Source of the DNA: Botryllus schlosseri
Lineage: Eukaryota
Length of the DNA stretch: 64,000 bases
NCBI GenBank assembly: GCA_051294905.1
Contig: CM119372.1
Coordinates: forward strand, 38,814,001 to 38,878,000
Direction: 5' to 3'
Part shown: piece by piece, positions 642-36,780 of the stretch
Numbering within the stretch: position 1 is the stretch's first letter
Layout: each line of letters opens with the position of its first letter
Made by a program: the position numbers and the translations under genes
The notes under the pieces: generated by a model
What the model saw: only the letters and a program-made list of their open reading frames with translations
Told to the model about the DNA's origin: nothing
The model's database searches: none

Positions 642-711
642 ATGGCTATAGCTGCGGTTTCGCGTCTGTCGCTCGTGCTAGCACTGTTTTCGTCTATTCA
701 AGGCCAGAGAG
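642..711 (+). CDS. GH9 gene exon 1: signal peptide [23 protein letters not shown]
   Basis: ATG at 642, hydrophobic core, donor G|gtagga at 711/712, phase 1 matches exon 2. Confidence 0.75.
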
Positions 712-36700: not shown

Positions 36701-36780
36701 AATGCGTGAACGCCAGAAAGAAAGCACGCAAGGCAGCTGCTTTAAAAAAGGCGAACGCACGCAAAAAATCGAGTCAGTAG
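642..36780 (+). CDS. Multi-exon secreted GH9 endo-beta-1,4-glucanase (cellulase) with Sushi/CCP domain, two CBM2-like modules and a basic C-terminal tail, 1034 aa
   Basis: 16 exons joined at GT-AG sites with matching phases: 642-711, 3725-3904, 6957-7120, 9710-9884, 11364-11648, 13552-13703, 14670-14817, 15471-15710, 19150-19317, 20334-20518, 29853-30079, 30293-30506, 31217-31352, 31410-31584, 33068-33258, 36386-36780 (total 3105 nt, open frame). GH9 motifs: [83 protein letters not shown]. Joining the N-terminal exons to the GH9 exons rests on phase continuity, not on transcript data. Confidence 0.88.
1276..1694. mobile_element. hAT MITE (AGAGGAC-repeat family); another copy at 55071-55304
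   Basis: TAGG.TTACCATA / TATGGTAA.CCTA ends; shared internal block AAAAGAGGACAAAATC...TTAGGCGTCCT. Confidence 0.7.
2299..2482. repeat. GACTCGAGTC/GACTT-rich MITE family; copies also at about 10113-10300, 37270-37453, 58567-59309 and 63774-64000
   Basis: Arrays of the palindrome TGACTCGAGTCA and GACTT pentamers. Confidence 0.75.
2490..2822 (-). mobile_element. tRNA-derived SINE; related copies at about 3545-3675, 4040-4200 and 46320-47372 (split)
   Basis: - strand A box TAGCGTAGTGGT and B box GGTTCGAGTC, followed by a body shared among copies. Confidence 0.7.
3075..3350 (+). mobile_element. tRNA-derived SINE, second family
   Basis: A box TGGCGCAGTTG, B box GTTTCGATTCCC, no tRNA cloverleaf or acceptor stem. 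Confidence 0.55.
3725..3904 (+). CDS. GH9 gene exon 2: Sushi/CCP domain
   Basis: [60 protein letters not shown] (C-P..G...C..GY...G....C....W.....C pattern); ttag| acceptor, |gttagt donor, phase 1-1. Confidence 0.85.
4568..5117 (-). mobile_element. 3' end of CR1/L2-clade LINE
   Basis: [16 protein letters not shown]...[16 protein letters not shown]2 end plus 3' UTR shared with 35282-36115. Confidence 0.7.
5657..6498 (+). mobile_element. Non-autonomous hAT element retaining a transposase C-terminal remnant
   Basis: TAGGG..CCCTA ends, TSD CTGATGAC/GTAATGAC; encodes [24 protein letters not shown] (hAT dimerisation-like P.T...ERLFS). Confidence 0.75.
6957..7120 (+). CDS. GH9 gene exon 3: first CBM2-like module, N-half
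   Basis: [29 protein letters not shown]...[15 protein letters not shown]; tttcag| acceptor, |gtaggc donor, phase 1-0. Confidence 0.82.
8743..9561. mobile_element. hAT MITE
   Basis: TIR CAGGGGTGTC, GCGGGCCG subterminal repeats, TSD ATGTAATC/ATGTACTC. Confidence 0.85.
9710..9884 (+). CDS. GH9 gene exon 4: first CBM2-like module, C-half
   Basis: [28 protein letters not shown]...FSVLVVAEG; caacag| acceptor, |gtgaaa donor, phase 0-1. Confidence 0.8.
10355..11227 (-). mobile_element. Second copy of the 5657-6498 hAT family, inverted
   Basis: Reverse-complement homology throughout; perfect TSD GTCATTAG. Confidence 0.8.
11364..11648 (+). CDS. GH9 gene exon 5: end of module 1 plus Thr/Pro/Ser-rich linker
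   Basis: [15 protein letters not shown]...[17 protein letters not shown]...EVFCK; phase 1-1. Confidence 0.78.
13552..13703 (+). CDS. GH9 gene exon 6: second CBM2-like module, N-half (absent from ORF track)
   Basis: [51 protein letters not shown]; ctttag| acceptor, |gttcag donor, phase 1-0. Confidence 0.78.
14670..14817 (+). CDS. GH9 gene exon 7: second CBM2-like module, C-half (absent from ORF track)
   Basis: [49 protein letters not shown] aligns to exon 4 (SW..DG.TFTF.NP); phase 0-1. Confidence 0.75.
15471..15710 (+). CDS. GH9 gene exon 8: end of module 2 plus Ser/Thr-rich linker
   Basis: [13 protein letters not shown]...KPNPKANT; cctag| acceptor, |gtgagc donor, phase 1-1. Confidence 0.72.
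15968..16806. mobile_element. Fold-back element with long TIRs enclosing opposed degenerate TTAGGG / CCCTAA arrays
   Basis: TIR GGCGCTTCTTCGATATACGCCCCAGATCGAAACAGTG, perfect for 37 bp and continuing imperfectly inward; 8-bp TSD AAAAAATT. Confidence 0.85.
16877..17703. mobile_element. hAT MITE nested in 15913-18345
   Basis: TIR CAG..TGGGCAACC, perfect TSD ATCTAATA. Confidence 0.85.
18783..18960 (+). mobile_element. tRNA-derived SINE with a MetaSINE-like core
   Basis: A box TAGTGTAATGG, degenerate B box, then GGTCACACCAAAG...TTCCTCGCTTGGCGCTCAGC. Confidence 0.45.
19150..19317 (+). CDS. GH9 gene exon 9: start of catalytic domain (absent from ORF track)
   Basis: [56 protein letters not shown]; |gtgagg donor. 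Confidence 0.95.
20334..20518 (+). CDS. GH9 gene exon 10
   Basis: [62 protein letters not shown]. Confidence 0.95.
20810..21330 (+). pseudogene. Penelope-like retroelement fragment (RT C-terminus and GIY-YIG endonuclease), degenerate
   Basis: [26 protein letters not shown]...ILLDNGYP...LPWIGPIS...KDVLP...[29 protein letters not shown], with stops and frameshifts. Confidence 0.8.
22424..22678 (-). repeat. 3' LTR of Gypsy element
   Basis: Direct repeat of 26883-27137; preceded on the - strand by polypurine tract AGGGGAGGAC (22679-22689). Confidence 0.95.
22711..26830 (-). pseudogene. Gypsy gag-pol polyprotein broken by several small indels
   Basis: Consecutive ORF-track pieces 24235-26787, 23894-24262, 23358-23897, 22871-23473 and 22711-23109 tile one polyprotein; probable original ATG at 26830. 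Confidence 0.9.
26859..26878 (-). promoter_or_regulatory. Primer-binding site, tRNA-Leu type
   Basis: - strand TGGTGTCAGAAGTCGGATTC just inside the 5' LTR; complementary to the metazoan tRNA-Leu 3' end GAATCCCACTTCTGACACCA with one mismatch. Confidence 0.85.
26883..27137 (-). repeat. 5' LTR of Gypsy element
   Basis: Direct repeat of 22424-22678; adjacent to PBS. Confidence 0.95.
28541..29272. mobile_element. hAT MITE
   Basis: CAGGG..CCCTG ends, GGCCCGCG subterminal repeats, perfect TSD TTCTAATG. Confidence 0.85.
29853..30079 (+). CDS. GH9 gene exon 11
   Basis: [24 protein letters not shown]...[19 protein letters not shown]...FDFANKF. Confidence 0.95.
30293..30506 (+). CDS. GH9 gene exon 12
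   Basis: [35 protein letters not shown]...[11 protein letters not shown]. Confidence 0.95.
31217..31352 (+). CDS. GH9 gene exon 13
   Basis: ALLADMTK...[18 protein letters not shown]; followed by a 57-bp intron (31353-31409). Confidence 0.92.
31410..31584 (+). CDS. GH9 gene exon 14
   Basis: [10 protein letters not shown]...[33 protein letters not shown]. Confidence 0.92.
32340..32970 (-). mobile_element. Third, truncated copy of the 5657-6498 hAT family
   Basis: Collinear similarity to 10570-11227; a fourth internally deleted copy lies at about 37490-37900. Confidence 0.75.
33068..33258 (+). CDS. GH9 gene exon 15: catalytic acid Glu motif
   Basis: [12 protein letters not shown]...[45 protein letters not shown]. 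Confidence 0.95.
33339..34320. mobile_element. hAT MITE containing a second MITE at 33691-34001
   Basis: TIR CAGTGGTTCCCAACC; inner TIR CAG(T/C)GGTT(C/A)TCAAACT with TSD AACTAGTG/AGCTAGTG. Confidence 0.8.
35282..36115 (-). mobile_element. 5'-truncated CR1/L2-clade LINE, same family as 4568-5117
   Basis: [39 protein letters not shown] (post-RT region) and matching 3' UTR. Confidence 0.75.
36386..36780 (+). CDS. GH9 gene terminal exon 16: Thr-rich linker plus Lys/Arg/Ala-rich tail
   Basis: gtttgtcag| acceptor; phase 1 completes AIA-GLKEF, the expected end of the last GH9 helix; stop TAG at 36778-36780. Confidence 0.82.

Follow-up and report, generated by a model that had tools for sequence, protein, structure and literature searches.

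The stretch of DNA analysed here (hereafter the window) comprises 64,000 nucleotides from Botryllus schlosseri (GenBank assembly GCA_051294905.1, contig CM119372.1, forward-strand positions 38,814,001 to 38,878,000). It carries on its + strand a cellulase gene, which in our rebuilt model has 16 exons, 15 GT-AG introns and a coding sequence of 3105 nt, specifying a protein of 1034 aa and ~113 kDa. The gene is real and transcribed, and its host is a tunicate. The predicted product combines a secretion leader, a Sushi/CCP module, two CBM2 modules and a GH9 catalytic domain with a basic tail. We found this layout, up to the GH9 domain, in a small GH9 subfamily whose named members so far are only tunicates, and propose tentatively that the enzyme acts on the cellulose of the animal's own tunic.

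The gene was rebuilt without the exon list of an earlier, sequence-only annotation of the same DNA (the original prediction), from stop-to-stop frames and AG/GT splice sites with their phases on the + strand between 600 and 36800. Parts of a leader, of a Cys-rich module, of two modules of the W..GGF type and of a GH9 domain can already be recognised in these frames. Splice sites were chosen to keep a single frame, to fall at parallel positions in both repeated modules and to agree with homologs; a model based purely on splice scores, in which several exons came out too short, was replaced by this phase- and homology-guided version. The continuous 1034-aa frame over 16 exons proposed in the original prediction was obtained again independently, with the same length and the same junctions 15710/19150 and 33258/36386. 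The model is colinear with a 1006-aa relative (P0002), gapless at the junctions, and two paralogs in the same genome, on contigs C15 and C4, exhibit the same exon order and phases for exons 2–4, 6–7 and 9–15.

Transcript mapping covered positions 17000–36999 of the window and used spliced contigs of three runs (X1–X3) together with a raw RNA-seq run (X23). Runs X1–X3 are not RNA on record and were taken as such by their share of sampled words (0.22–0.16), which approximates the exon share of the stretch. Seven of the 15 junctions are present in the contigs of X1–X3, all of them GT..AG (19317/20334, 20518/29853, 30079/30293, 30506/31217, 31352/31410, 31584/33068 and 33258/36386), the first of them in X2 as a variant joint with one extra letter. 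The contigs thus remove exactly the predicted introns 9–15, among them intron 10 (9.3 kb) and intron 15 (3.1 kb, between the GH9 domain and the tail exon), and raw RNA reads of X23 contain 4 of these 7 junctions (2, 2, 6 and 3 reads). The original prediction had proposed RNA evidence for all 15 junctions, with emphasis on 15710/19150 and 33258/36386: the second of these is seen in X1, X2, X3 and three raw X23 reads and introns 9–15 are all covered, while junctions 1–8 lie outside the mapped stretch. Support for junctions 1–8 is indirect and comes from relatives, from paralogs and, for 15710/19150, from contig X3.

The features of the gene, with the evidence for each, are as follows.

642..711, + strand: exon 1, start codon and signal peptide, aa 1–23 (donor GAG/gtagga, phase 1; the only strongly hydrophobic 19-mer is aa 1–19).
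3725..3904, + strand: exon 2, one whole Sushi/CCP module with 8 Cys, phase 1-1, aa 24–83 (sub-threshold Pfam match, CCP matches in the own genome, AlphaFold model).
6957..7120, + strand: exon 3, first part of CBM2 module 1 (colinear with relatives; matched in the genome only at its own position and in the two paralogs).
9710..9884, + strand: exon 4, middle part of CBM2 module 1 (colinear with relatives; the fold of the equivalent P0002 module is that of solved CBM2 domains).
11364..11648, + strand: exon 5, end of CBM2 module 1 with its final strand and closing Cys, Thr/Ser/Pro linker and first Cys of module 2 (relatives; equivalent paralog exons).
13552..13703, + strand: exon 6, first part of CBM2 module 2 (relatives and paralogs; 26.5 bits for the spliced module in a comparison with a Pfam-positive CBM_2 profile).
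14670..14817, + strand: exon 7, middle part of CBM2 module 2 (relatives and paralogs).
15471..15710, + strand: exon 8, closing Cys of module 2 and second, Ser/Thr-rich linker (240 nt, ends in CAG; fits the 5' part of contig X3 record 11).
19150..19317, + strand: exon 9, GH9 profile positions 1–55 (Pfam E 1.9e-16; joint to exon 10 in X1 and X3, variant in X2).
20334..20518, + strand: exon 10, GH9 57–116 with the DAGD motif (Pfam E 1.2e-17, motif alignment, junctions).
29853..30079, + strand: exon 11, GH9 118–191 (Pfam E 1.9e-21; contigs of X1, X2 and X3 lack the preceding 9.3-kb intron).
30293..30506, + strand: exon 12, GH9 195–270 (Pfam E 4.7e-14; junctions in contigs and raw reads).
31217..31352, + strand: exon 13, middle part of GH9 (no Pfam match when taken alone; aligns with relatives; junctions seen).
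31410..31584, + strand: exon 14, GH9 334–389, ending in HHA where most relatives have HHR (Pfam E 1.3e-8, motif alignment, junctions).
33068..33258, + strand: exon 15, GH9 396–443 with the catalytic Glu (Pfam E 2.9e-14, motif alignment, junctions).
36386..36780, + strand: exon 16, end of GH9 (LKEFAM), 84-aa Ser/Thr-rich stretch, 45-aa polybasic end and stop codon (junction 33258/36386 in X1, X2, X3 and three raw X23 reads).
36781..36999, + strand: start of the 3' untranslated region (UTR) (contig X1 record 5, unspliced over 36383–36999).

Record 5 of X1 continues for 585 nt beyond 36999, so the 3' UTR is long and would end near 37584 if the remainder is colinear. The joint between exons 8 and 9 deserves separate consideration, since the 1034-aa protein could be an artefact that joins an N-terminal Sushi/CBM2 gene with a separate GH9 gene. 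Junction 15710/19150 is indirectly supported, by X3 record 11, the relatives and the paralogs, and record 6 of X2 runs 76 nt into intron 8 (19074–19149) instead of being spliced at exon 9. However, the frame upstream of exon 9 contains no Met before a stop, and we therefore read the X2 record as an unspliced precursor. Record 11 of X3 (2298 nt) comprises exons 9–16 and 240 further nt 5' of 19147 that are not found on 17000–19146 and must thus derive, by splicing, from sequence farther 5'. Its alignment begins 3 nt early, as would follow if the preceding exon ended in CAG; exon 8, also 240 nt long, does so. Moreover, the phases at this joint match (1/1), both paralogs exhibit the same module order on one strand, and Ciona, Phallusia and other relatives carry that order in one protein. 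We regard a two-gene artefact as very improbable.

The catalytic domain is clearly GH9: 6 of the 7 GH9 exons match the Pfam family PF00759 with 35–77 bits each (cut-off 27.7; E-values from 1e-8 to 2e-21), and the matches are colinear over profile positions 1–443. The sequence retains DAGD, DH..WGRPE and the C-terminal Glu, and both GGWFDAGDRVKF and the Glu motif align with the same motifs in 21 sequences. We take the Asp pair of DAGD and the C-terminal Glu to be the catalytic residues, as is established for the family. The HHR motif reads HHA in the window copy; the Arg, which presumably binds the substrate, is likewise absent from 4 of the 21 aligned GH9 sequences (P0003, P0005, P0006 and P0009, one of them a named insect enzyme) and was for this reason taken to be non-essential. 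The protein is probably an active endoglucanase. The C4 paralog presents a different picture, with DAGN, DD in place of DH, RHS in place of HHR and His in place of the catalytic Glu in a frame that stays open over 431 aa, and is likely a pseudo-enzyme. Its preserved frame and the Arg-to-Ala replacement in the window copy would both fit a mainly non-hydrolytic function for the latter, as a cellulose or matrix binder, a structural cross-linker or a regulator that uses GH9 as a binding module. We consider this improbable, as both Asp residues of DAGD and the catalytic Glu are present in the window copy, and the Arg is dispensed with in the four sequences mentioned above, the insect enzyme included.

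The only hydrophobic segment of the whole protein is aa 1–19, with no membrane segment elsewhere, which fits a signal peptide and a secreted product; in P0002, P0049 and P0050 a hydrophobic leader likewise directly precedes the Sushi module. The two linkers are rich in Ser, Thr and Pro. At the other end, exon 16 opens with the ancestral terminus of the domain (LKEFAM; compare LQFFAMEK in P0049) and continues for ~120 residues. The resulting tail of 129 aa consists of 84 Ser/Thr-rich residues followed by 45 residues with 20 Lys/Arg, no Asp/Glu, two Cys and an isoelectric point (pI) of 11.9. The relatives terminate 6–11 residues past the shared AGL motif, and the long tail is special to the window copy. 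The 35-aa tail predicted for the C4 paralog (LKHFAM) was compared with it by global alignment, the score of which was reached by 19 of 1000 shuffles, so that we claim no homology past the first six residues; the last exon of the C15 paralog was looked for and not found. In both paralogs, linker exon 5 encodes a Thr-rich, mucin-like stretch and a block of ~25–30 residues that are almost only Lys, Arg and Asn. The basic block thus lies between the CBM2 modules in the paralogs and at the C-terminus in the window copy.

Exon 2 encodes a divergent but real Sushi/CCP module. Its match to Pfam Sushi (PF00084) scores 11.9 bits, under the cut-off of 20.7, yet spans the whole profile (1–56 of 56), and the corresponding modules of the two paralogs remain likewise below the cut-off with 18.4 and 19.5 bits. 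The module begins at its first Cys; when it is aligned with true Sushi exons, C28, C42, W51 and C58 prove invariant, and it has four more Cys. A search of the own genome (495.5-Mb assembly, in which the window lies on contig C2) identified 32 places matching exon 2, which after exon 2 itself and the two GH9-linked copies are exons of CCP arrays (E 2.5e-5 and weaker); all six array exons that were tested pass Pfam Sushi with 21–41 bits. The equivalent module of P0002 matches proteins with 7–38 Sushi repeats (8 of 12 scanned). The AlphaFold model of exon 2 has a predicted local distance difference test (pLDDT) value of 91.5, from an alignment of 13 rows of which 4 are true Sushi exons, and its best matches in the PDB are modules of CD46, CD55, CR1, Crry and E-selectin (TM-score on the query 0.8–0.88, root-mean-square deviation 1.4–2.0 Å, E 2.6e-3 and weaker). 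The window module is basic (pI 9.2).

The two divergent CBM2 modules are also real, albeit harder to detect. None of the six single exons 3–8 matches Pfam CBM_2 (PF00553, cut-off 24 bits), each module being split over three exons, and a search of the whole genome in six frames with PF00553 yielded no match; we read these results as an effect of short split exons and divergence, and not as absence. The equivalent modules of relatives score 36.8 bits in Ciona (two stretches), 24.5 in P0021 and 22.8, just below the cut-off, in P0002. The spliced modules of the window protein were compared with a profile made from 7 Pfam-positive modules of other origin and reach 25.3 and 26.5 bits, where the maximum of 4000 shuffles is 8.9. 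The fold was compared on module 1 of P0002, standing in for the window module. A model of the Sushi module and module 1 of this relative (17 rows, pLDDT 87.2) has solved CBM2 domains as its top matches, followed by CCP proteins, and for module 1 the PDB matches are 3ndy_E (E 4e-5), 6qfs, 2rtt, 2cwr, 6f7e and 1exg, with TM-scores of 0.59–0.69 on the target. Both window modules have a Cys at either end, a feature of all 12 aligned modules of the tunicate type, and the two terminal Cys of each module probably pair with each other.

The three cellulose-binding positions of type 2a modules are those of the Cellulomonas fimi module, and are visible in the canonical rows of the alignment. Two of the three aromatics, the first two Trp, are kept in both window modules; at the third position module 1 has Glu and module 2 has Gly, and binding to crystalline cellulose may consequently be weak. 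Among the six relatives this position is Glu or His in module 1 of all and aromatic in module 2 of five. A separate 249-aa protein, P0038, consists only of two nearly identical CBM2 modules (Pfam 46.2 bits), in which an H-D-N-A-D-L motif replaces the third aromatic, as in module 1 of the tunicate enzymes. A phmmer search of the PDB with P0038 placed gelation factor on top (E 0.005) and 1exg at E 0.074, and was useless for placing the aromatics.

Could the binding modules serve recognition of something other than the animal's own cellulose? Sushi modules dominate proteins of the complement type, and the closest structural matches of exon 2 are complement regulators; several of the best CBM2 structure matches bind chitin (2rtt, 2cwr and 5dhd), and the loss of the third aromatic in both modules could mean a ligand other than crystalline cellulose. 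One might accordingly imagine an enzyme of defence or surface cleaning, whose Sushi and CBM2 modules recognise, on the tunic or in the blood, the cellulose or chitin of foreign organisms (algae, fungi, oomycetes or fouling species) for degradation by GH9. On the other hand, GH9 enzymes are β-1,4-glucanases and not chitinases, the protein has no other immune-type domain, and nothing in the data points to blood cells. We therefore consider a defence function unlikely.

The combination of domains recurs in few places. The search with exon 11 against 5.8 billion proteins found none identical or close, with a best match of 53% identity, and retrieved P0002, a marine protein of the same layout. A HMMER search with the Sushi module and module 1 of P0002 against 1.84 billion representatives gave 33 matches, mostly to multi-Sushi proteins, and only P0021 and P0025 matched the whole query. 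In a profile search, P0025 is A0A6F9DJC5 of Phallusia mammillata, annotated as 'Endoglucanase', and two further proteins were added, LOC100175432 of Ciona intestinalis (1092 aa, with two Pfam CBM_2 domains and GH9) and a protein of 929 aa. Residues 1–60 of P0025 form an extra Cys-rich stretch before the Sushi module, ending in a CC....CN-type pattern, and could represent a mis-assembled 5' end. This pattern is reminiscent of that of Ly6/uPAR three-finger domains. A further protein of our set, P0013 (1084 aa), has precomputed Pfam matches to three GT2-type families followed by GH9 and would, if correct, be a glycosyltransferase-glucanase fusion reminiscent of CesA-GH6; a K/R-rich insert inside its GH9 motif may be an intron left in the translation.

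In the own genome, exon 3 matches only two other places, both adjoining a Sushi-like exon and located upstream of GH9 exons. A tblastn search with the gene model revealed the order Sushi, module 1, module 2 and GH9, on one strand and with the same exon phases, at ~21174100–21191700 on C15 and at ~12335000–12350730 (- strand) on C4 (loci L029–L031), and in both paralogs the GH9 part assembles into an open frame of 431 aa. Within ~1 kb downstream of the C4 paralog begin a frame resembling a linker and the initial exon of a further GH9 copy, which may be either a gene in tandem or an additional GH9 domain belonging to this paralog. Altogether, GH9 has 108 exon-level matches in this genome, in 12 clusters on C2, C4, C6, C7, C8, C12, C13, C14, C15 and C16, mostly in tandem; 18 of them start at profile positions 1–4, which implies at least 18 genes, and only 3 of these carry Sushi/CBM2 exons. 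A GH9 tree was calculated by a quick search from 20 rows, with one poor row left out and the C15 and C4 copies as the only own-genome paralogs. The eight proteins of this layout (the window copy, its two paralogs, Ciona, Phallusia and three further marine sequences) form one side of a branch with a support of 92 in the SH-like approximate likelihood-ratio test (SH-aLRT), and within them the window copy groups with its two paralogs and P0001/P0002 (99). These proteins make up a small GH9 subfamily with the Sushi-CBM2-CBM2-GH9 layout, whose named members so far come from tunicates only.

Within the searched literature no paper was found that treats GH9, Sushi and CBM2 together (Davison & Blaxter 2005 and Lo et al. 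2003, which are outside it, may cover the Ciona gene), the papers listed as best matching these terms make no mention of Sushi, and neither LOC100175432 nor A0A6F9DJC5 occurs in any paper of that literature. The work on tunic formation deals with CesA and GH6. The subfamily is thus undescribed there but visible in databases as predictions. The original prediction had called the architecture unusual and suggested a search for it in other genomes: the layout is indeed without a description in the searched literature, but it is the regular form of a tunicate GH9 subfamily, occurring in Ciona, Phallusia and three further relatives and three times in the present genome. The individual parts it had named all hold up: a signal peptide, in the sole hydrophobic segment at the N-terminus; a Sushi/CCP module, divergent yet correctly labelled in view of the own-genome CCP matches, the conserved Cys and Trp and the modelled fold; two divergent CBM2-like modules with Thr/Ser/Pro linkers, from the profile of Pfam-positive modules, the scores of relatives and the P0002 fold; a GH9 domain with its catalytic Asp and Glu, from Pfam matches in six exons and the motif alignment; and a basic tail, in the composition of the final 45 residues.

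The tunicate host, raised there as a possibility, was confirmed by cellulose-synthase genes. Tunicates are described as the only animals that make cellulose, and a GT2-GH6 fusion as the hallmark, among animals, of tunicate CesA (both statements from the available parts of the sources). On the - strand of contig C9 (15025585–15088831, loci L009–L012) we found two GT2 and two GH6 matches within 63 kb. In the first pair, a GT2 match of the cellulose-synthase type lies 3.3 kb upstream of GH6 on the same strand; in the second pair, nearby, the matches are ~20 kb apart. This arrangement suggests either two CesA-type genes, or CesA and a separate GH6 gene, in tandem.

What, then, might a secreted GH9 enzyme of this composition do in such an animal? 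The CBM2 pair would hold it on cellulose, and the basic Sushi module together with the polybasic tail could keep it bound to a polyanionic matrix or to a partner protein; it would thus act as a locally tethered and not a freely diffusing glucanase. The preferred site would be the cellulose of the animal's own tunic, where the enzyme may trim or loosen the microfibrils made by CesA, in a role that would correspond to that of KORRIGAN in plants and BcsZ in bacteria; action on the tunic is the weakest step of this explanation. We assign to action on tunic cellulose, in preference to digestion, a rough probability of 0.4. It is ranked first because the layout is confined to cellulose-making animals, basic segments recur, a dead paralog has been kept and there is a precedent in Oikopleura. 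The basic anchoring segments are found in all three paralogs and in Ciona, and the open frame of the C4 paralog, maintained despite the loss of the catalytic Asp and Glu, fits a role in the matrix better than one in digestion. As for the precedent, GH9 of Oikopleura dioica is reported to be expanded and expressed in the house-producing epithelium (bioRxiv 10.64898/2026.03.31.715263, available text), and a 2024 paper on the fin describes, in its available part, an epidermal cellulase for fin formation as still sought.

Several observations count against a tunic enzyme. Animal GH9 genes are said, in the part of the literature accessible to us, to serve the digestion of food cellulose. The genome has at least 18 GH9 gene starts, and families of digestive enzymes typically show such expansion as well. 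A Tfap2-type element is reported to drive Ciona CesA in the epidermis (available text of the source), and the corresponding motif, GCCNNNGGC, is absent from the 8.6 kb upstream of exon 1, in the farther 8 kb of which 1.0 would be expected, a result that is weak either way; within the window it occurs 3 times against 5.1 expected. To these may be added the Arg-to-Ala change in HHR, the missing third aromatic of both CBM2 modules, with its consequence for binding to crystalline cellulose, and the indirect link of exons 1–8 to exon 9.

A digestive cellulase is a close second, because the characterised animal GH9 enzymes are digestive and at least 18 gene starts are present, and we treat it as a serious, if tentative, possibility. 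Such an enzyme would be produced by the stomach or digestive gland for the cellulose of phytoplankton and detritus, like the molluscan CBM-bearing GH9 enzymes, and the Sushi module, the mucin-like linkers and the tail would keep it on gut mucus or the feeding net. The characterised animal GH9 enzymes named in the available parts of the literature are all of this kind, an N-terminal CBM2 is a known position in animal GH9, the number of gene starts resembles a diet-related expansion, another glucanase family of Ciona is stomach-specific, and the upstream region (8.6 kb) lacks the Tfap2 motif. However, a combination of Sushi, two CBM2 modules and polybasic segments is reported for no digestive cellulase in the searched literature, the layout is found among named sequences only in tunicates, and a catalytically disabled paralog with an intact frame is hard to explain in a digestive set. 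The view of the original prediction, that the enzyme is matrix-remodelling rather than digestive, thus stays a plausible inference.

If the enzyme does act on the tunic, a broader and more doubtful proposition may be considered. A dedicated, tunicate-specific set of secreted GH9 proteins, including a dead member, might constitute the machinery, so far missing, that edits cellulose outside the cell when animals synthesise it, docked in the tunic via CBM2 on the microfibrils and via basic Sushi and polybasic segments on sulfated matrix glycans, and setting the length and packing of fibrils as KORRIGAN does; of its copies, the window gene would then have the strongest anchor to the matrix. For the tunic, the synthase CesA and a GH6 enzyme are already known, and the 2024 fin paper describes an epidermal cellulase as still sought. 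The present analysis provides a concrete candidate family for trimming, loosening or remodelling the tunic, restricted to tunicates and with LOC100175432 as its clear ortholog in Ciona. In it, an old animal digestive enzyme fold has been joined to an adhesion module of animals and to binding modules of bacterial type. Should it prove to be a gut enzyme, the value of the finding would shrink to that of a curious domain combination.

The remainder of the window contains several unrelated features. Intron 10 harbors a long terminal repeat (LTR) retroelement (22400–27140, - strand) with gag-like, protease, reverse transcriptase and RNase H regions (858 aa) and, in other frames, the zinc-binding and core parts of an integrase. 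Contigs of X1–X3 join 22417 to 27137, skipping 4719 nt, in what looks like an LTR-to-LTR form, and read depth is high across the element. In the same intron, positions 20699–20792 exhibit very high depth in all four runs, with hundreds of loose read ends on both sides, and are probably a short repeat that is transcribed and very abundant. A single frame, open over 394 aa (44887–46071, - strand), matches Pfam Galactosyl_T (E 3.2e-34); situated ~8 kb downstream of the cellulase, it looks like an intronless gene of the β-1,3-galactosyltransferase type. Finally, overlapping frames of 112–160 aa at 60116–61207 (+ strand), with a faint match to the DNA-binding domain of the Hermes transposase (E 0.079), may be a decayed hAT-type element.

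Comparison with known systems helps to place the cellulase. The closest counterparts are Ciona LOC100175432 and Phallusia A0A6F9DJC5 (1028 aa), which share with the window protein a leader, an 8-Cys Sushi-like module, two CBM2 modules, Thr/Pro-rich linkers and GH9, and belong to the same tree group. The Ciona protein has strongly basic, Arg-rich linkers, and its Sushi-CBM2 linker is ~90 aa long, against 3 residues in the window protein; the Phallusia entry differs by its additional Cys-rich N-terminal stretch. Both end 8–11 residues past AGL, without the 129-aa tail of the window copy.

Among digestive enzymes, the nearest are the molluscan GH9 proteins of the type of abalone HdEG66, a layout represented in our set by P0009, and we take HdEG66 itself to carry a CBM2. 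They are likewise secreted, with an N-terminal CBM2 (a position on record for animal GH9) and a Thr-rich linker. HdEG66 is of digestive origin. In contrast to the window protein, this type has one CBM2, no Sushi module and no basic tail, and falls in another GH9 tree group.

With KORRIGAN (a class A GH9 enzyme) and bacterial BcsZ (GH8) the similarity would be one of function, an endoglucanase beside newly made cellulose, as far as the available texts describe it; of the two, only KORRIGAN is also a GH9 protein. Judged by its sequence, the window protein does not belong to the plant class A (KORRIGAN type): KORRIGAN exhibits an N-terminal membrane anchor and no CBM, whereas the window protein has a leader of the cleavable type, no membrane segment, two CBM2 modules and Sushi.

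The comparisons within tunicates are closer in biology. GH9 of Oikopleura is likewise an expanded tunicate family, for which cellulose of the animal itself is the proposed substrate; in the available text of the preprint the only accessory domain mentioned is of the expansin type, and the term 'CBM' does not appear. Tunicate Gh6/GH6-1, an epidermal cellulase, is, according to the accessible part of its description, likewise a candidate editor of ascidian tunic cellulose. It differs in having the GH6 fold, a membrane anchor and a bacterial origin by horizontal acquisition, whereas the window gene is an old animal GH9 with added animal and CBM modules.

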